Source: Patescibacteria group bacterium (GTDB lineage: Bacteria; Patescibacteriota; Minisyncoccia; Phycocordibacterales; Phycocordibacteraceae). From it: a DNA stretch of 64,000 bases. The DNA is taken from positions 618,394 through 682,393 of the forward strand of contig JAIELV010000001.1 in assembly GCA_019752595.1 (NCBI GenBank). Direction: 5' to 3'. The translations under genes and the position numbers were made by a program. Below the pieces are notes generated by a model, which ran no database searches, was not told where the DNA came from, and was given only the letters and a program-made list of their open reading frames with translations. Within the stretch, counting starts at the first letter, position 1, and each line of letters opens with the position of its first letter. Positions 7,674-32,408 of the stretch are shown here, in pieces.

Positions 7674-8447
7674 ATGAAAAAAACAGAAAATAAACTTAAA
7701 GAATCACTGATTTCTTTGGGTCTTTCCGACAAAGAAGCATCTGTATACTTGGCGCTTTTGGAGCTTGGCCGCTCAACAGTTTCAAAAATTTCCCGTAAAG
7801 CAGACGTGAATCGTGCAACGGGGTACGTTATCTTGGATTCTTTGGTAAACATGGGTCTTGCGCATATATCTGGCAAAGAACCGAAGCAGGAATACACAGC
7901 TGAATCCCCCGATAACCTCGTGCGTCTGTTACGCGAAAGGAAAACAAAAGCGGAAACGGCTTTGGTGACCGCGGAAGCGCTCGCACTGGAATTGAAATCT
8001 ATACAGAAAAAAGAAGACCGTCCTCAGGTTAAGTTCTATGAGGGTATTGAAGGAATGAAACAGGTGTATGAAGATACCCTCACTTCATCTGAAACGATAC
8101 GCGCCTACGCTGCGGTTGAAGATGTGCACAGCTTATTCGGAAATTATTTTCCTACGTATTACAAGCGCCGCGCCGGAAAAGGCATCAGTATCCGTGCAAT
8201 ATTCCCAGACACCCCCGCATCAATTGAGCGCGCAAAGCTAGACTCGGAGGAAGCGCGAGAGAGTGTGCTTGTGCCGAAAGAAAAATATGAATTCCATCCC
8301 GAAATCAACATCTATGACAACAAAATAATGATTGCCTCATGGCGCGAAAAGCTCGGCATTATTATTGAGAGTAAAGAAATTGCCGAAGCAATGAAAACTG
8401 TTTTTGAACTTTCTTGGATCGGAGCGAAGCACGTTGCGCGCAAATAA
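7674..8447 (+). CDS. TrmB-family transcriptional regulator (paralog 1)
   Basis: 257 aa with an N-terminal winged HTH (LGLSDKEASVYLALLELGRSTVSKISRKADVNRATGYVILDSL) and a C-terminal TrmB-type domain. It shares long identical blocks with paralog 2, including QVKFYEGIEGMKQVYEDTLT and WREKLGIIIESKEIA. Confidence 0.8.
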   Translation: MKKTENKLKESLISLGLSDKEASVYLALLELGRSTVSKISRKADVNRATGYVILDSLVNMGLAHISGKEPKQEYTAESPDNLVRLLRERKTKAETALVTAEALALELKSIQKKEDRPQVKFYEGIEGMKQVYEDTLTSSETIRAYAAVEDVHSLFGNYFPTYYKRRAGKGISIRAIFPDTPASIERAKLDSEEARESVLVPKEKYEFHPEINIYDNKIMIASWREKLGIIIESKEIAEAMKTVFELSWIGAKHVARK

Positions 8448-8478
8448 ATACTACCTGCAGTCTTGTAGCATGTCATCA

Positions 8479-8494
8479 TGTTACCATGGTAACA
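8479..8494. promoter_or_regulatory. 16-bp perfect palindrome TGTTACCATGGTAACA (copy a)
   Basis: Lies in the convergent intergenic space between TrmB-1 and the ABC ATPase. A related copy sits at 19667-19682 in the YerC/sigma promoter region. Confidence 0.4.
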
Positions 8495-8532
8495 CGGTGG
8501 CACCTCACAGGTATGCAGTAGGTTGTCTACTA

Positions 8533-11618: not shown

Positions 11619-12407
11619 ATGGGTAAACGAGAGGAACAATCCTTAGACACATTGCTTTCTTTCGGGCTCTCGAAGAAAGAAGCCGGAGTGTACATTGCGC
11701 TCCTCGGACACGGGCGCGGAACGGTATCCCAAATCTCACGAAAAGCCGGAATCAACAGAACGACGGGGTACGACATCCTCGCTTCTTTAGCACGGGCGGG
11801 TCTTGTGCGTGTTTCCGGGAAAGAACCGAAACAAGAATATGTAGCTGAATCTCCGGATAATTTGTTGAAACTTCTGAATCGCCGCCTCAGAGAGACTGAA
11901 GAAAGTATACACAAAGCGAAAGATTTTATTCCTGAATTAAAATCACTCCATAAAATTGACGACAGACCGCAAGTAAAATTTTACGAAGGGATTGAAGGGA
12001 TGAAACAAGTATACGAAGATACGCTCACCGCAACGGAGACGATACATGCGTACGCAAATTACGATGATATGCATGCGACCTTGGGCGACTATTTTCCTTC
12101 GTACTACAAACGACGCGCGGCAAAGGGTGTATACGCAATCGGAATCGTACCTGCAACTCCACTCGCGAAAGAGCGCGCTGCAAAAAACACTGAAGAAAAT
12201 CGTGAACTAACGCTTACCCCGCTGGAAAAATTCAACATCTCGCCTGAGATAGATATATATGACAACAAAACGGTTTTTGTTTCGTGGCGGGAAAAACTCG
12301 GCATTATTATTGAGAGCAAAGAAATAGCAGACGCAATGAAAAACATTTTTACACTTGCACAAGGAGAAGCGAAGCGTTTAGAGAAAGAAGCGGGGCTTAA
12401 TCTCTAG
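11619..12407 (+). CDS. TrmB-family transcriptional regulator (paralog 2)
   Basis: The ORF-track start at 11583 is the TTG of the -35 box. The ATG at 11619 (MGKREEQSLDTLLSFGLSKKEAGVYIALL) aligns with the paralog-1 start. Confidence 0.8.
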   Translation: MGKREEQSLDTLLSFGLSKKEAGVYIALLGHGRGTVSQISRKAGINRTTGYDILASLARAGLVRVSGKEPKQEYVAESPDNLLKLLNRRLRETEESIHKAKDFIPELKSLHKIDDRPQVKFYEGIEGMKQVYEDTLTATETIHAYANYDDMHATLGDYFPSYYKRRAAKGVYAIGIVPATPLAKERAAKNTEENRELTLTPLEKFNISPEIDIYDNKTVFVSWREKLGIIIESKEIADAMKNIFTLAQGEAKRLEKEAGLNL

Positions 12408-16110: not shown

Positions 16111-16143
16111 AAAAACACCCGCCTCAGGCGGGTGTTTTTTATT
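16111..16143. terminator. Bidirectional intrinsic terminator
   Basis: acacccgcc-tcag-ggcgggtgt, flanked by AAAAA and TTTTTT. Confidence 0.75.
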
Positions 16144-16144
16144 G

Positions 16145-16228
16145 GGAATCGGTCCTTACAGGACCAGTACGGGTTTCGCATTCACGTCGCTTTCGCTCGT
16201 TCATATGCTCAACCGCCTTCGATTCCCT
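16145..16228 (-). ncRNA. Conserved structured RNA-like element, copy A, embedded in a tRNA-Gly-derived pseudo-T-arm
   Basis: Outer stem GGGAATCG / CGATTCCC. Inner hairpin GGTCC-TTACA-GGACC. It shares a 62-nt core with copy B at 26525-26624 with only 5 substitutions, two of them compensatory. Strand is not established. Confidence 0.45.
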
Positions 16229-16273
16229 TACGCGAATGAAGCAGTTCATTCGCTATCCCGCGTACCAATATAT

Positions 16274-16306
16274 AAAAACAACCCACACGGAGTGGGTCAT
16301 TTTTAT
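16274..16306. terminator. Bidirectional intrinsic terminator between tRNA-Gly(UCC) and element A
   Basis: acccac-acgga-gtgggt, flanked by an A run and a T run. Confidence 0.55.
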
Positions 16307-16365
16307 ATATGTGCGACTTTGTTTTGTTGTCGGTACTCCGACTTAGAAAACAAGAAGTACTCGTG

Positions 16366-16439
16366 TGGTGCGGGATAAGGGAATCGAACCCTTGCCATCA
16401 GTTTGGAAAACTGATGTTCTACCATTAAACTAATCCCGC
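16366..16439 (-). tRNA. tRNA-Gly (anticodon UCC), CCA encoded
   Basis: Manual cloverleaf of 74 nt. Acceptor GCGGGAT / ATCCCGC, anticodon loop TTTCCAA, T-arm AAGGG-TTCGATT-CCCTT, and a 3' CCA. Confidence 0.85.
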
Positions 16440-19545: not shown

Positions 19546-19666
19546 AGGCCGTATATGTAGACGAGTATACCCCGCCTTTCTTTCTGTCTTCACACGAAAA
19601 AAATTCCTGCCCGCAAGACGGTGTAGCTGTACCCCCCCCGCAACACAAAAGAGTATCGTGGTATCG

Positions 19667-19682
19667 TGGTACCATGGTAACA
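19667..19682. promoter_or_regulatory. Palindrome TGGTACCATGGTAACA (copy b), abutting the -35 box of the yerC-like promoter
   Basis: Shares the ACCATGGTAACA core with copy a at 8479-8494. It is preceded by the tandem GTATCGTG GTATCGTG. Confidence 0.4.
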
Positions 19683-19684
19683 TG

Positions 19685-19713
19685 TTGACACGTAGAACCA
19701 TGTGCGATATAAT
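19685..19713 (+). promoter_or_regulatory. Consensus sigma70 promoter TTGACA-N17-TATAAT for the TrpR-like gene
   Basis: TTGACA at 19685-19690 and TATAAT at 19708-19713. Confidence 0.6.
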
Positions 19714-25593: not shown

Positions 25594-25664
25594 CGGGGTG
25601 TCGTATACCGGTAGTACGCTTGCTTTGGGAGCAAGATGACCGAGTTCGATTCTCGGCACCCCGA
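25594..25664 (+). tRNA. tRNA-Pro (anticodon UGG), no encoded CCA
   Basis: Manual fold of 71 nt with C1:G72, as in E. coli tRNA-Pro. Anticodon loop TTTGGGA, T-arm CCGAG-TTCGATT-CTCGG, discriminator A. Confidence 0.8.
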
Positions 25665-26051
25665 CTAGGACCCGAGAACGACGTTCTCCAAAAACCGCAC
25701 TTTTGCGGTTTTTGTTTTTTCGTCGAGATAGACAGCAATAACATCAAATTGCCAATCCCCGACGACATTCCTTTCCAATATGTAGCTTTCTATAGTCCTC
25801 AAAAGCCTTTTTATTTTTTGAGGGTGTACGTTTTCTTCGGGGCGATGCCTTTCTGAAACAGCACTCTCCCCCGTTTCCCATGAAACGGATTTAACTTCTA
25901 CAAAATGCACACACTCATCTTTTCGAGAGACTAAATCGATCTCACCGTAGGGTTTTCGGTAGTTTCTGGATAGGATTGTATGTCCTTTTGATACTAAGTA
26001 CTCTTCGGCGACCTTTTCACCAATACGACCTATTTCATTATGTTTAGCCAT
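25665..26051 (-). CDS. YraN-family (UPF0102) endonuclease-like protein
   Basis: 128 aa with the characteristic GEIDLV...FVEVK core. Confidence 0.7.
   Translation of the reverse strand: MAKHNEIGRIGEKVAEEYLVSKGHTILSRNYRKPYGEIDLVSRKDECVHFVEVKSVSWETGESAVSERHRPEENVHPQKIKRLLRTIESYILERNVVGDWQFDVIAVYLDEKTKTAKVRFLENVVLGS
25691..25716. terminator. Bidirectional terminator (tRNA-Pro / yraN-like gene)
   Basis: accgca-cttt-tgcggt followed by tttttg; the complement has its own T run. Confidence 0.7.
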
Positions 26052-26238
26052 ATTTTACTGTTTCACGTGAAACGTGTCTGAAAGCAAAAGTATGATAATA
26101 GCATTATTTAAAGCCATATTTTTAAGAAATTGCCTGTTTTTTGTGCCCTATATAAGTTGTCTTTTATACACATACACACAGGTTTGTCCACAGTTTTAGA
26201 CAATTTCACGTGAAACGCGTTTCTTATGAAACATGAGG

Positions 26239-26472: not shown

Positions 26473-26524
26473 AATTCCGTATTTATATCATGAACTACAT
26501 GTTTTCTGCCAGTTTTAGGGGTTG

Positions 26525-26624
26525 TTTGTGCTCCCGGAGGGATTCGCTCCTTACAGGAGCAGTACAGGTTTCGTATTCACGTCGCTTACGCTCGTTCATA
26601 TACTCAACCTTTTCGAATCCCTCC
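26525..26624 (-). ncRNA. Conserved structured RNA-like element, copy B, embedded in a duplicated tRNA-Arg 3' end / T-arm
   Basis: Positions 26525-26543 exactly repeat the 3'-terminal 19 nt of the adjacent tRNA-Arg (26655-26673 in reverse-complement sense). Outer stem GGAGGGATTCG / CGAATCCCTCC. Inner hairpin CTCC-TTACA-GGAG. The core matches copy A. Confidence 0.45.
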
Positions 26625-26625
26625 G

Positions 26626-26650
26626 CAACAAAACAGACCTTCGGTCTGAC
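26626..26650 (-). terminator. Intrinsic terminator between tRNA-Arg and element B
   Basis: Minus strand reads CAGACC-GAAG-GGTCTG followed by TTTTGTT. Confidence 0.65.
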
Positions 26651-26654
26651 TTTG

Positions 26655-26726
26655 TGCTCCCGGAGGGATTCGAACCCCCAACGACTGCTTCGAAGGCAGT
26701 TATGATATCCATTTCACCACAGGAGC
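26655..26726 (-). tRNA. tRNA-Arg (anticodon UCG), no encoded CCA
   Basis: Manual fold of 72 nt. Acceptor GCTCCTG / CGGGAGC with one G·U pair, anticodon loop CTTCGAA, T-arm GGGGG-TTCGAAT-CCCTC. Confidence 0.75.
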
Positions 26727-26764
26727 GGTATTTGTAATCCTACGCCACGAACCGATAACGTACA

Positions 26765-28237
26765 ATGCAGATAATGAAATTTGTTTTACCTGACTCGGTG
26801 CAGAAAGTAGCAGAGGCTCTAGAAACCGCTGGTTACGAGGCCTACGTCATCGGAGGGTGCGTACGGGACATTCTGTTGGGGGAGACTCCAAAAGACTGGG
26901 ATTTAACAACAAACGCAACGCCTCAAGAAATACAAGCAGTTTTTCCTGATTCTTTCTACGAAAATGATTTTGGAACGGTCGGAGTAAAAACACGTGACGA
27001 AGATGAAACACTTGCAGTCATCGAAGTAACGCCGTACCGAAAAGAAGGGAACTACTCCGACGCTAGACGGCCCGACACTGTTGAATTCGGTGTTTCGCTT
27101 GATGAGGATTTAAAACGTCGCGACTTCACCGTAAACGCAATCGCATACCGCCCGAAAACAGGGGAGTTTGTCGACCAACATGGTGGACAAGAAGACCTCA
27201 AAAAACGGCTTATTAGAGCCGTGGGAGAGCCGAAACGAAGATTTGAGGAGGATGCCTTGCGCATGATGCGGGCAATACGTCTCTCAGCAGAATTGGACTT
27301 TGCGATTGAAAGTGAAACGGCCGTTGCGATGCATGCAACCGCGGAAAACTTGGGCAAGATTTCGAAAGAAAGAATTCGAGACGAACTGATGCGCATTTTG
27401 GCGACCAAGGAACCGATGGCGGCGCTTTCAATAGCGCTCAAACTTGGACTTTTAAAATACATCGTCCCTGACTTGGAGCGGGGAATAGGAATCGACCAAA
27501 ATCAGGCACATTCCTACGACGTCTTCGAACACAACGTGCGCGCCATGCAGCACGCAGCAGACAAAGGCTGGTCAGTGGACCTTCGTCTTGCGGCGCTTTT
27601 TCATGACATCGCAAAACCTGAATCACGTCGATGGTCTGAGGAGAAAAAAGATTGGACTTTCCATGGGCACGAAGTCGTAGGATCGAGAGTGGCGAAAAAA
27701 GCCTTAGAGGAGCTTCGCTTCCCAAAAGAAACCGTGGAGAAAGTGGCCAAGCTGGTCCGCTGGCATATGTTCTTTTCAGACCCCGACCAGATAACGCTCT
27801 CTGCGGTGCGGAGAATAATAGTGAATGTCGGGGTGGAAAATATTCAGGAACTTTTGAACTTAAGAATCTGTGACCGCATAGGAACAGGGCGACCAAAAGA
27901 ACAGCCGTTTCGGCTCAGAAAATACATGGCGATGGTGGATGAGGCTATGCGCGACCCAATAAACGTTGGCATGCTCAAGGTCAATGGGAACGACCTGATG
28001 ACGGAAGTGGGGGAGAAGCCAGGACCACGGGTTGGATGGATTTTGCATGCCTTACTTGAAGAAGTCCTTGAAGACCCTCAGAAAAATACTCGTGAATATT
28101 TGCTCGAAAAATCACGCATTTTGTCCTCTATGGAAACCGCAGCGCTCAAAGACATGGGTGAGGCAGGGAAGGGTGCTCAGGAGGAGGCAGAAGAAGCGGA
28201 GCTATCGAAAATAAAGGCTAAACACAAGGTTGATTAA
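26765..28237 (+). CDS. cca: CCA-adding tRNA nucleotidyltransferase with HD domain
   Basis: 490 aa with the polymerase-beta head motif GGCVRD, a tRNA-NT body and a C-terminal HD domain. Confidence 0.88.
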   Translation: MQIMKFVLPDSVQKVAEALETAGYEAYVIGGCVRDILLGETPKDWDLTTNATPQEIQAVFPDSFYENDFGTVGVKTRDEDETLAVIEVTPYRKEGNYSDARRPDTVEFGVSLDEDLKRRDFTVNAIAYRPKTGEFVDQHGGQEDLKKRLIRAVGEPKRRFEEDALRMMRAIRLSAELDFAIESETAVAMHATAENLGKISKERIRDELMRILATKEPMAALSIALKLGLLKYIVPDLERGIGIDQNQAHSYDVFEHNVRAMQHAADKGWSVDLRLAALFHDIAKPESRRWSEEKKDWTFHGHEVVGSRVAKKALEELRFPKETVEKVAKLVRWHMFFSDPDQITLSAVRRIIVNVGVENIQELLNLRICDRIGTGRPKEQPFRLRKYMAMVDEAMRDPINVGMLKVNGNDLMTEVGEKPGPRVGWILHALLEEVLEDPQKNTREYLLEKSRILSSMETAALKDMGEAGKGAQEEAEEAELSKIKAKHKVD

Positions 28238-30591: not shown

Positions 30592-31449
30592 TTGCAGAAT
30601 ACGACGCGTATGACTAGGATAGAAAAAGGTGTCCGCGGGAAATGGTCGCGATTGCGTAGCGGTTTAAGTCGCGAGGGGTGGAAAAAGAGGGTATTGAGAA
30701 GTATCGCAGAAAAAACCGTCAACACCGCTACGTATGAAAGCATCCCCTTGTGTGACCTCGTGGGCCAAAAACCTCTAGATGAGTACAACTTCATGCGACG
30801 CCTGAAAGAGGCGGGGTACCGCGACGCTGACCTAGCAAGCCCCTCAGACTGCGAGCAGGTATTCAACGCGGATAATCATTACAGAAGCGCGGAACTGCAG
30901 TTGCAGTTTTACGACGGCCGACGCCACCTATTCGTGAATACAAATCGTGGGGCAGGGAAACACGCAATGATTCATTCTGATGTGGACGGGATTTACCGAG
31001 GGGATATCCCGTATAAAAATCTAGGTAAGCATGTAACCAGAAGAGACCGATTGGTCATTCGTCCCCATGTGCGACGCGTAACACCGGAAGCAATCCGCAC
31101 ACTGCGAGAAACCATGCAAGGAAAAGTCCATAGAGGGGATGGCACGTACGACATGGAGACAAAAAGAATCAATTTGTTTAACAGTATTGCCAGCTACGTA
31201 CGACCTCTTATTGATGAATTTTCTACTGAAAACTGGACGAAGCATGAGCAAGCTTTGAGTGCGCTCATCGTGGGGCCCGAGGGCGAAAATATAAAAAAAT
31301 GGCAGGAACTTTTTAATGGCCTCTTAGTTGCTCGCACGGACGATGAATTAAATGTCATTTCAGAAACATTCAAAGCGATGCAACCTGAACTCAAAATGAT
31401 TGGCCAAAAAAGGAGAGAGTGGGATTCGGCGACGTACGAAGGAGACTAA
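30592..31449 (+). CDS. Hypothetical protein
   Basis: 285 aa with no recognised domain. It is convergent with the xerC-like gene and overlaps its 3' end by 4 nt. Confidence 0.45.
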   Translation: MQNTTRMTRIEKGVRGKWSRLRSGLSREGWKKRVLRSIAEKTVNTATYESIPLCDLVGQKPLDEYNFMRRLKEAGYRDADLASPSDCEQVFNADNHYRSAELQLQFYDGRRHLFVNTNRGAGKHAMIHSDVDGIYRGDIPYKNLGKHVTRRDRLVIRPHVRRVTPEAIRTLRETMQGKVHRGDGTYDMETKRINLFNSIASYVRPLIDEFSTENWTKHEQALSALIVGPEGENIKKWQELFNGLLVARTDDELNVISETFKAMQPELKMIGQKRREWDSATYEGD

Positions 31450-32408
31450 GTACGACGACGTTTGCCGTGGAACGTGTGATGAATGTCACGCAAATGTTTG
31501 TCGGTAACGTGTGTATAGATTTGTGTCGTTTGAATATTTGCATGGCCAAGGAGCGCCTGAACGGAGCGTAAATCAGCTCCGTTTTCTAATAGGTCAGTTG
31601 CAAACACGTGTCGCAACACGTGCGGCGTGACCTTTGAAGTAATACCCGCGCGCGCGGCGTAGGCTTTGAGCTTCAATTGCACGTCGCGCGGGCCGATGCG
31701 ATGTAGTTTTTTTGCAGAACGACCTTCAACAAACAACGCCTCTTCCATATCGTTCCGCGCTTTCAAATATTCCCGCACAGCCTTCTTTGCCCGCTCGGAA
31801 AGGAAAACCACGCGTACCTTTTCCCCCTTACCTCTTACGGAAAGCTCATCGCGTGTAAGGTCGATGTCGCTATTTAATGCGCACAGCTCGGAAACGCGCA
31901 GACCCGTTGAGAAAAGGAGTTCCAGCATCGCCCTGTCACGGAGTAGTTTCCGCTGTTTGTCGGGGTCAGATTCTTTTTTCAACGCTTCGCTCGGCGCACT
32001 CATTAGACGTTCAAGCTCAGCAACCGTAATAAGGTCGAGCGAGCGCTCGGCGACCTTCGCAAGTTCTATCTTTTCAGGTTGCAGCGTCTTGATGTCGCGT
32101 TTCGCCATGTATTTAAGGAACGCGCGCAGAGCGATGAGGTAAAAATTCTGCGTTTTCCTCTTCAGAGTGCCGTTGCCAGCGGGCCCGCCTGCCGGACGGG
32201 CAGGTTGACGATTGAGCCACAGACGAAATTCGCGAATGAGGGCGTCAGTAATGCCTGCGGGGGAGTCCGTTTTTGCAAATTGAAGAAATCGGGTAAGGTA
32301 GTGGTCGTAATTTTCGACCGTTTTTATGCTCCGACCCTTCGTTATTTCTATATATTCTAGAAATTCACGCTTCAGTTCAGCCAAAGATGCCATCCAGCCA
32401 GTATACAT
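31446..32408 (-). CDS. xerC: Tyrosine site-specific recombinase XerC/XerD
   Basis: 320 aa with an N-terminal SAM-like core-binding domain. The catalytic R...HxxR...Y context is HVLRHVFATDLL...IYTHV. Confidence 0.88.
   Translation of the reverse strand: MYTGWMASLAELKREFLEYIEITKGRSIKTVENYDHYLTRFLQFAKTDSPAGITDALIREFRLWLNRQPARPAGGPAGNGTLKRKTQNFYLIALRAFLKYMAKRDIKTLQPEKIELAKVAERSLDLITVAELERLMSAPSEALKKESDPDKQRKLLRDRAMLELLFSTGLRVSELCALNSDIDLTRDELSVRGKGEKVRVVFLSERAKKAVREYLKARNDMEEALFVEGRSAKKLHRIGPRDVQLKLKAYAARAGITSKVTPHVLRHVFATDLLENGADLRSVQALLGHANIQTTQIYTHVTDKHLRDIHHTFHGKRRRT

Follow-up and report, generated by a model that had tools for sequence, protein, structure and literature searches.

Short non-coding cassettes bounded by inverted and direct copies of tRNA 3' ends downstream of tRNA genes in a patescibacterial lineage

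We analysed 64,000 nucleotides (nt) of a Patescibacteria group bacterium genome (GCA_019752595.1, contig JAIELV010000001.1, positions 618,394 to 682,393; hereafter the window), in which an intact tRNA-Arg(UCG) gene is followed by a short element, copy B, that ends in an exact copy of the tRNA 3' end. A related element, copy A, stands behind tRNA-Gly(UCC). Coordinates refer to the plus strand of the window, and the cassette features and the tRNAs concerned are on the minus strand. Read along the tRNA strand, the order at copy B is tRNA-Arg, terminator-like hairpin, inverted arm, core and direct arm:

26654-26726, minus strand: tRNA-Arg(UCG), intact (ARAGORN; Rfam tRNA model, 64 bits)
26626-26653, minus strand: leader of copy B, composed of AAAGT, the hairpin CAGACC-GAAG-GGTCTG (26634-26648) and TTTTGTTGC (terminator scan, sequence comparison)
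26612-26625, minus strand: inverted arm CGGAGGGATTCGAA, 14 nt, the reverse complement of tRNA-Arg T54-G67, containing the 5' strand of helix P1 (26614-26624)
26547-26613, minus strand: type-1 core, 67 nt (folds, compensatory pairs, covariance model R1, 109 bits)
26525-26546, minus strand: direct arm CGAATCCCTCCGGGAGCACAAA, a 22-nt exact copy, containing the 3' strand of P1 (26536-26546)
26401-26472, minus strand: tRNA-Gly(GCC) (ARAGORN, Rfam), the downstream neighbour of copy B, with its own -10-like element

Copy B belongs to a family of short (~40-250 nt) cassettes, non-coding and strand-specific, which are found downstream of tRNA genes in a Paceibacteria-like lineage of the Patescibacteria. 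Each unit is laid out as a leader, often with a terminator-like hairpin, an inverted copy of the segment running from the T-loop to the 3' end of the tRNA, a core folding as a three-way junction, and that segment once more as a direct copy. The direct arm of copy B (26525-26546) is identical over 22 nt to 26651-26672 (TTTGTGCTCCCGGAGGGATTCG on the plus strand) and spans C56 to A73 of tRNA-Arg plus four trailer nucleotides (CAAA). The original prediction had noticed this duplication, and the repeat is real, but the 19-nt intervals that it paired (26525-26543 and 26655-26673) are mismatched and shifted by 4 nt, the true repeat being 22 nt long. Only one other 19-mer repeat occurs in the 64 kb, in a paralogous coding stretch. 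The terminator-like hairpin at 26634-26648 does lie between the two copies, in a gap of 104 nt rather than the ~110 bp given before, and the 11-bp stem was likewise recovered, though it encloses 67 nt and not 62. No open reading frame (ORF) lies inside either insert (104 nt for copy B, ~215 nt for copy A).

The stem in question, P1, pairs GGAGGGATTCG (26614-26624) with CGAATCCCTCC (26536-26546) over 11 bp, closes the three-way junction around 26547-26613, and is an exact duplex copy of the tRNA gene (tDNA) from C56 to C66. The core that it encloses comprises an AAAA junction, the hairpin P2 (26567-26609), a TGTACT linker and hairpin 2 (26546-26560, GCTCC-TGTAA-GGAGC); P2 has tandem G.A loops and carries an apical 23-nt motif (26576-26598) with a GTAA loop. 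Copy B folds with a minimum free energy of -42.3 kcal/mol (z = -7.2), and the analysis confirms it as a real feature, far beyond chance. Hairpin 2 starts with GCUCCUGU, which is identical to nucleotides 1 to 8 of tRNA-Arg. An alternative acceptor-like minihelix, in which GCUCCUGU could pair with the 3' tail GGGAGC, was dropped as it is not conserved in the Gly-associated copies.

Rather than reproducing the tRNA's own 5' T-stem strand, the 5' arm is Watson-Crick complementary to the 3' strand of the tRNA. At four of four positions where a tRNA stem has a G.U pair, the arm carries the Watson-Crick base: an A opposite U64 of the G50.U64 pair in tRNA-Arg of the window, and likewise at U6.G67 of tRNA-Arg in L016 and at G49.U65 and G51.U63 of tRNA-Gly in L125, two loci of relatives. 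A T-loop variant of tRNA-Arg in L125 is also mirrored in its arm (TTCGAGT giving ACTCGAA). The arm may run on into the complement of the acceptor strand, for 19 nt in all behind tRNA-Gly of L016 (GCGGGATAAGGGAATCGAA) and 17 nt behind tRNA-Arg of the same locus, where P1 reaches up to 19 bp. In the L016 Gly unit P1 consists of the 7 bp of the acceptor and the 5 bp of the T-stem, directly joined, and where hairpins occur within arms they are positioned exactly at the acceptor/T-stem boundary. Because the arm is a Watson-Crick complement and can extend into the acceptor complement, the unit is an inverted plus a direct copy of one tRNA segment rather than an insertion into a T-loop. The earlier description of a duplicated T-stem split by an insert thus had to be given up, and with it a T-loop insertion into a tRNA copy, since the 5' arm does not correspond to tRNA 5' strands.

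The same core recurs at copy A, 16144-16214 and 26539-26609 being 90% identical over 71 nt, and a pattern built on the core has two matches in the window against none expected. Its arms are specific to tRNA-Gly, in agreement with the prediction that the core is shared by a unit behind tRNA-Gly(UCC) that uses the T-stem sequence of that tRNA. The features of this locus are:

16366-16439, minus strand: tRNA-Gly(UCC), intact (ARAGORN, Rfam)
16262-16365, minus strand: leader of copy A, with a hairpin at 16281-16297 and then an AT-rich TATATT stretch just before GCGGGATA (terminator scan, reading)
16218-16261, minus strand: left arm, made up of GCGGGATA, a 9-bp hairpin, a G and TAAGGGAATCGAA
16152-16217, minus strand: type-1 core (R1, 110.6 bits)
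16144-16151, minus strand: direct arm CGATTCCC, 8 nt, tRNA-Gly C56-C63 only, the other 12 nt of the 3' end missing
16115-16135, minus strand: bidirectional terminator after copy A, which directly follows tRNA-Gly(UCC) in the empty site of the relative L011

In the left arm, GCGGGATA (16254-16261) is an 8-nt complement of the acceptor 3' strand of tRNA-Gly and is separated by the 9-bp hairpin (16232-16253) from the T-stem complement TAAGGGAATCGAA (16218-16230), the 13-nt reverse complement of T54-A66. The closing stem, GGGAATCG/CGATTCCC, has 8 bp of Gly T-arm sequence, and the direct arm is truncated in comparison with the full arms in L016 and L125. Within the core, P2 (16172-16214) has a GAAA loop and GCAT/ATGC in place of GTAT/ATAC, and hairpin 2 (16151-16165) is closed by GGTCC/GGACC. 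The terminator scan lists the leader hairpin on the opposite strand only; by eye, the minus strand has TGTTTTTATATATT after it. Beyond copy A come the bidirectional terminator and a convergent HU gene.

Loci of relatives were retrieved through the gene for the CCA-adding enzyme, and gene order is kept among them. At 10 non-redundant loci, 37 tRNA genes were surveyed, and the 450 nt following each were examined for copies, 11 nt or longer, of that gene's 3' tail. A direct copy was found behind 13 of the 37 and an inverted copy behind 10, so that further duplications of tRNA 3' ends, for which a search had been proposed, proved common. Within any one unit the inverted copy (at +20 to +144, or +20 to +54 for the first unit behind a tRNA) comes first without exception and the direct copy (+24 to +206) second, and the arms match the adjacent tRNA in all bacterial units. 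Upstream of the 37 genes there was no tail copy, the longest match being 8 nt, and a scan for stems closed by TCGAA...CGA returned strong cases only beside tRNAs. Examples are seen in L012 (Gly-GCC), L016 (Gly-UCC, Pro and Arg), L017 (Pro, two units), L127 (Pro), L125 (Gly-UCC, Gly-GCC and Arg) and L126 (Gly-GCC and Arg). Behind tRNA-Arg of L126 (9640-9866, minus strand) stand two near-identical tandem units of 121 nt, each ending in GAATCCTGGCGGGCGCAC, followed by a third with a type-2 core and no recognisable arms. Units are arrayed in tandem in L017, L019 and L126, L005 and L127 hold remnants, and mini-units consisting only of a small hairpin and the acceptor 3' strand were found in L015, L019 and L126. 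Direct copies behind tRNA-Pro and tRNA-Arg in relatives include trailer bases, as in the window. The Pro-type units have no intervening terminator and are placed for co-transcription with tRNA-Pro.

The closest comparison is with L011, whose CCA-adding enzyme is 93% identical to that of the window. There, the sequence immediately after tRNA-Gly(UCC) is AAATAAAAACACCCGCC...GGCGGGTGTTTTT, the terminator found past copy A in the window, and the leader of copy A is missing as well; the empty-site comparison suggested with the original prediction therefore gave an empty site in L011 and a filled one in the window. The tRNA-Arg site has one unit in the window against two in tandem in L011 (tRNA, E1, E2), of which E1 is of type 1 and E2 has the same arm, a different core and an end in a third copy of GGGAGCACAAA. 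The leader of copy B also precedes E2, and the single Arg unit of the window is a hybrid in which the leader and arm of E2 are joined to an E1-type core. Read from sequence comparison, this arrangement shows that cores can be recombined between units and that units exchange parts. The original prediction had named as fatal to it a core found nowhere else and relatives free of direct repeats, and the opposite was seen on both counts. A groundwater contig from Hainich (L005) has the ortholog of copy A, behind which the 3' part of a type-2 unit remains. Copy A and this ortholog are 95.6% identical, the flanking HU gene being 84% identical, and the closer relative L011 has no unit there. Taken together, the units are shown to be matched to their target, tandemly accreted, gained and lost between close relatives, and to exchange parts.

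Two core types were distinguished. Type 1 has three helices, P1, the long hairpin P2 (GGUU-GA-GYAU-AUGA-ACG-A-GC-GNNA-GC-GA-CGU-GA-AURC-GA-AACC) and hairpin 2 (GNUCC-UGUAA-GGANC). Among its four bacterial copies (A and B of the window, L005 and L011 E1) two pairs are doubly compensated, others change from G-C to G-U, and the apical loop varies among GUAA, GAAA, GACA and GGUA. Its tip GCGAAAGC equals a DNA mini-hairpin that we take to be unusually stable. Type-2 cores are three-way junctions as well, with P2 of the form GCC-GGA-[hairpin]-GA-GGC and P3 of the form GGUCGCG...CGUGACC, and in a five-sequence subset double compensatory changes affect 11 of 23 pairs. A UUAGYGA motif is present once or twice per type-2 core (L016, L017, L127, L126), and a 27-nt block, GGCGATTAGCAAATCGTGCCGAGAGGC, is identical in the type-2 cores of L016 (Arg) and L017 (Pro, unit 2). 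Under RNA and DNA parameters alike, the fold of the tRNA-sense strand is more stable than that of the complementary strand in 11 of 11 bacterial units. Leaders resemble one another across tRNAs and genomes, with AAAATAATGAGC, a hairpin and then ATTATATTTTG, and two genomes, at four different tRNA loci between them, share a conserved junction from leader to inverted arm; the repeated entity is therefore the small unit and not some larger element.

Outside the bacterial relatives, a 22-nt pattern (21 specified bases) taken from the 23-nt apical motif matched a single genome in GTDB, that of the haloarchaeon Halostagnicola sp. A-GB9-2, and because a single chance match was plausible its genomic context was checked. 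The motif is present there in three copies with an identical 23-nt hairpin, CUGAACGAGCGAAAGCGACGUGAAGG (L001, 7650-7900, minus strand; L002, 2290-2485, plus strand; L003, 820-1070, minus strand). It sits in a similar long G.A-rich hairpin with a second hairpin after it, and the type-1 covariance model aligns to the archaeal element end to end (25 bits, E = 4e-4). At either end of the L002 element stand GGGCGTGGCGGGATT and AATCCCGCCACGCCCG, arms of 15 and 16 nt that respectively reverse-complement and directly repeat the 3' end of the neighbouring tRNA-Arg(CCT), and further small inverted repeats based on the T-arm lie between element and tRNA. The L002 core is flipped, that is, antisense to the tRNA, which fits a DNA-level element bounded by inverted repeats. 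The L001 element adjoins tRNA-Ala, which its arms do not match, and the L003 copy is truncated after the long hairpin. No integrase, transposase or other recombinase-like gene was found within these 8-kb loci, and blastn against plasmids and phages gave no match to the archaeal element. In metagenomes, the exact core pattern had one true match (L005) and six chance matches in coding DNA; in IMG/VR the type-1 core pattern had none, and none of the hits to two type-2 motifs was real.

We favour, with a probability of about 40%, the reading that the cassettes are hairpin-forming recombination units, mobilised in trans, which accrete at tRNA 3' ends. Gain and loss of units would come about through site-specific crossing-over of the tyrosine-recombinase type within the 3' segment of the tRNA, and every insertion would regenerate an intact tRNA while displacing one more copy of its 3' end distally. 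The order of tRNA, leader, inverted arm, core, direct arm and old trailer is what would be expected if the chromosome had crossed over with a small unit in circular or folded form. That the copies derive from the gene rather than from the mature tRNA follows from the direct repeat, which has genomic trailer bases rather than CCA. An ordinary duplex attP has no use for the inverted arm, but a single strand needs precisely this arm to present a duplex target, and the arm could let the single strand of the unit fold back and rebuild a duplex copy of the target tDNA segment; such a strand might be exposed in the lagging-strand template, in incoming single-stranded DNA or possibly in a transcript. 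The conserved core, including the 23-nt GCGNNAGC hairpin shared with the haloarchaeon, may be a handle for a protein or a function in single-strand priming. The recombinase would act in trans, and the sole candidate seen is a conserved XerA-like enzyme:

31446-32408, minus strand: Xer-type tyrosine recombinase (Pfam; NCBIfam XerA_Arch, 233 bits against a cut-off of 220)

This gene is the recombinase nearest to copy B, at 4.7 kb, and is syntenic in the locus of every relative; we regard it as a candidate only for the trans-acting enzyme. In the relatives L019/L020 (12319-14478) and L021 (3299-5458) the syntenic enzyme is 719 amino acids long with a LAGLIDADG-domain intein.

The arrays, the gain and loss of units, the trailer nucleotides in the repeat and the flipped archaeal core all favour a recombination or mobile cassette, whereas the strand-specific structure and the terminator and AT-rich stretch before some units keep an RNA function alive. 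The att-like architecture of the original prediction is thus upheld by the empty site, by one unit against two at tRNA-Arg and by the duplications in relatives, shorn of the split T-stem, and its three readings (a mobile element, a recombination module and an RNA) have been narrowed without being separated. Several points weigh against the recombination cassette. No recombinase has been linked to the units, nor were excised circles or junctions observed. Only the stretch from C56 to the 3' end is reproduced by P1, which makes it the right half of a T-arm site and not a complete two-armed recombinase site. The model alone does not explain how both arms are rewritten when a core changes tRNA, the Arg and Gly cores being 90% identical with entirely different arms. 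That some units are preceded by a terminator and then an AT-rich -10-like stretch, and that Pro-type units are placed as they are, suggests expression of the cassettes, and 23 invariant nucleotides across two domains are what one would sooner expect of a functional RNA or a motif bound by protein than of an att hairpin, whose tip is variable. The conservation of copy A above that of the HU gene likewise indicates purifying selection on the sequence itself. A bolder form of the recombination reading, in which protein-less hairpin cassettes are an unrecognised minimal class of mobile element common to Patescibacteria and haloarchaea, holding both strands of the tRNA 3' end in one strand, with arms rewritable to any tRNA and the conserved core with its cross-domain 23-nt hairpin as recombination or priming handle, seems to us possible but doubtful.

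The main rival, which we consider rather unlikely, is a small-RNA gene in which P1 is a Watson-Crick version of the acceptor/T-stem minihelix and serves as a handle for processing or stability (RNase P, RNase Z, CCA-adding enzyme). The three-way-junction RNA would act in trans, for instance as a tRNA mimic, a decoy or a protein sponge, and its matching arms and its adjacency to a tRNA would stem from local duplication and gene conversion. The strand-specific structure, with compensatory changes and with G.U pairs on the tRNA-sense strand, and folds far more stable than shuffled controls agree with such a gene, as do the conservation of copy A above neighbouring coding DNA and the L016 Gly unit with its acceptor and T-stem pairs and with arm hairpins exactly at their boundary. 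Expression would be served by the terminator and subsequent AT-rich -10-like stretch upstream of several units, by the terminator after copy A and by the Pro-type units, which without an intervening terminator would be co-transcribed. Arrays of two or three units per tRNA, truncated arms, remnants and frequent absence are, however, unexpected for a needed RNA; the acceptor 3' strand is unpaired in many units, among them copy B, so that no minihelix is possible in these; the archaeal core is antisense to its tRNA; and an inverted Watson-Crick complement is not readily produced by gene conversion. Nor was any described RNA family recovered by covariance models (tRNA, transfer-messenger RNA, Y RNA, ribozymes, riboswitches, T-box or group I intron). 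Rfam 15, run at gathering thresholds and at E values up to 10 on the window, the archaeal loci and the type-2 units, gave real tRNAs and noise only, ARAGORN found no transfer-messenger RNA, the mascRNA model matched real tRNAs only and YrlA scored 16.6 bits. A switch acting in cis on tRNA maturation seems a good deal less probable than a trans-acting RNA. In a read-through transcript the inverted arm would have two possible partners, the 3' end of the tRNA, whose folding and 3' processing it would then block, or the direct arm, with which it would form P1 and leave the tRNA free; the core would tune the choice. The succession of tRNA 3' end, complement and copy is indeed the layout of an attenuator, and all surveyed bacterial units are downstream of and on the same strand as the tRNA, the Pro-type units without a terminator between. 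Between most units and the tRNA there is nevertheless a terminator-like hairpin, the archaeal core occupies the opposite strand, and arrays, remnants and empty sites speak against a needed regulator.

Direct repeats of tRNA 3' ends with tandem accretion are the classic footprint of tRNA-targeting integrases, and the units could accordingly be inert scars left when larger integrative elements (a phage, plasmid or island) were deleted, with attR as the direct repeat and a piece of the attP flank as the core. We hold this to be improbable, if slightly less so than the cis-acting switch. Decayed arms and remnants in L005, L127 and the third L126 unit fit it, but no large version was seen at any of the 37 tRNA loci, nothing matched in IMG/VR or in phage and plasmid collections, and the conserved junction from leader to inverted arm (four tRNA loci, two genomes) is not what independent random deletions would leave; the helices are preserved by compensatory changes, and the reading leaves the inverted arm unexplained. 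Least credible of all is an RNA-level mobile element or new self-cleaving ribozyme, whose core would cleave or ligate at the T-loop or process a co-transcript, with DNA copies made by reverse transcription. The T-loop is where tRNA 3' fragments begin and where retroviral copying of tRNA primers stops, and the arm boundaries do lie in it (T54, C56, A58), next to a compact three-way junction with conserved purine-rich internal loops. Against this, the copies hold genomic trailer bases and not CCA, no TGG resembling a primer-binding site precedes the inverted arms, a reverse transcriptase was not seen, and Patescibacteria are reported to lack group II introns (PMC13011429). The tRNA group I introns described in the same paper lie in anticodon loops and are distinct from the cassettes (PMC13011429). 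A primer-binding site of the retroviral type was dropped for want of a CCA complement. A hammerhead core and a K-turn were each dropped on inspection by eye, as junction and bulge sizes do not fit, and no Rfam ribozyme family matched. Resemblances to the signal recognition particle Alu domain, 5S RNA and group II domain V were abandoned as no model matched. Small ORFs through the Pro-type units were set aside because their conserved 'SRIEGR' follows from nucleotide conservation, the pattern of which is structural.

Among known systems, the recombination cassette comes nearest to CTXphi and the integrative mobile elements exploiting Xer (IMEX), in which two inverted target copies tens of nucleotides apart let a single strand fold into a mimic of the duplex target (PMC4792948). 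The CTXphi stem 'mimics a ds-DNA molecule' and hijacks XerCD, its attP(+) hairpin mimicking the host dif site (PMC4792948). P1 is likewise a duplex-mimicking stem formed by inverted target copies, and as CTXphi and IMEX rely on a host recombinase in trans (PMC4792948), so all cassette loci have the Xer-type recombinase, a candidate only. The cassettes differ in that their target is a tRNA 3' end and not dif, that the unit is a hairpin and a short leader only, with no phage genome, and that the stem covers one side of the T-arm and is tipped by a conserved three-way junction. Integron attC sites are imperfect inverted repeats that work as a folded single strand for IntI, and their cassettes are shuffled and lost (PMC5027507, PMC4792948). 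Both systems show tandem arrays, an inverted repeat per unit, a strand-specific folded strand and a variable terminal structure (PMC5027507, PMC4792948), and the folded strand and the tandem array were found here. The present cassettes, in contrast, have no attI, Pc or ORFs, their arms copy the neighbouring tRNA (GGAGGGATTCGAA/CGAATCCCTCC and similar) rather than a family-wide consensus, and direct reading found no RYYYAAC/GTTRRRY core. The integron-integrase models reached 121 and 78 bits against cut-offs of 265 and 435 and no IntI with the I2 helix was found, whereas XerA_Arch passes.

Accretion by integrases at tRNA genes (attL/attR, cis-mobilizable elements) is similar in leaving the tRNA intact, with a direct repeat from the T-loop onward at the far end and tandem stacking. 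The bounding repeat with an intact tRNA and the empty site in L011 are both present, but the inserts, of 104 nt and ~215 nt, contain no ORF and thus no integrase; cassettes have 40-250 nt rather than kilobases, no genes, and an inverted copy of the att segment unlike an ordinary attP. MITEs (miniature transposable elements with inverted repeats), repetitive extragenic palindromic (REP) sequences, Correia elements and Rickettsia palindromic elements (RPE) are also short, non-coding, hairpin-forming, intergenic and variable between strains. MITEs differ in having family-constant terminal repeats and target-site duplications, and were rejected since the same core has Arg arms at 26.5 kb and Gly arms at 16.2 kb without flanking duplication. 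tRNA-like handles, such as mascRNA/MALAT1, tRNA-linked snoRNAs and bacterial Y RNA, share an acceptor/T-arm-like stem on another RNA domain, but most cassettes lack a T-loop, a D-arm and a complete acceptor stem, and the Rfam models do not match. Copies A and B have no downstream gene that a cis-regulatory leader of the T-box or riboswitch kind would control.

Literature searches found no described equivalent, and the cassettes look like an undescribed kind of tRNA-targeted element. If the recombination reading is true, the tRNA genes of these ultra-small bacteria would be sites at which tiny non-coding cassettes accrete with the help of nothing but a host enzyme, and the cassettes would be the smallest integrative unit described; a target-mimicking hairpin that can be re-addressed to different tRNAs would also be relevant to programmable integration. 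If an RNA reading is true, they would be a widespread new family of tRNA-linked structured RNA in a phylum with very few known regulators. On either reading ~40% of the surveyed tRNA genes have unannotated structured DNA behind them, partial matches to tRNA 3' ends in these genomes are not simply phage scars, and the 23-nt motif in a haloarchaeon is a puzzle across domains.

Neighbouring genes encode RNase Y, HU, GMP synthase, adenylosuccinate lyase and the CCA-adding enzyme, the last of which (26765-28237) immediately adjoins tRNA-Arg. The tRNA-Arg(UCG) gene encodes only C74 of the CCA end, and at all loci only C74 (sometimes CC) is encoded after the discriminator, not the full CCA (window 26651-26654 and 16366-16369). 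The orientation of tRNA-Pro and tRNA-Arg is flipped between otherwise syntenic relatives (window 25594-25665 versus L011 8601-8672; tRNA-Arg in L012, L015, L016, L125 and L127), and this points to local inversions at or close to tRNA genes, which the inverted repeats of the cassettes themselves may have mediated. Perfect intergenic palindromes, TTTCACGTGAAA (often GAAACGCGTTTCACGTGAAA), stand at 26062 and 26205 of the window, upstream of a UPF0102/NERD gene, and recur there in all relatives (L011, ~9170 and ~9300; L012, ~9170 and ~9330; L126), so that they look like a conserved operator. Two related stretches of 39-47 nt (8457-8503 and 19653-19699) have an 8-nt internal periodicity and the palindrome GTTACCATGGTAAC, and a 145-nt direct repeat (8267-8411 and 12212-12356, 73% identity, including a 20-nt exact match) lies in apparently paralogous coding regions.

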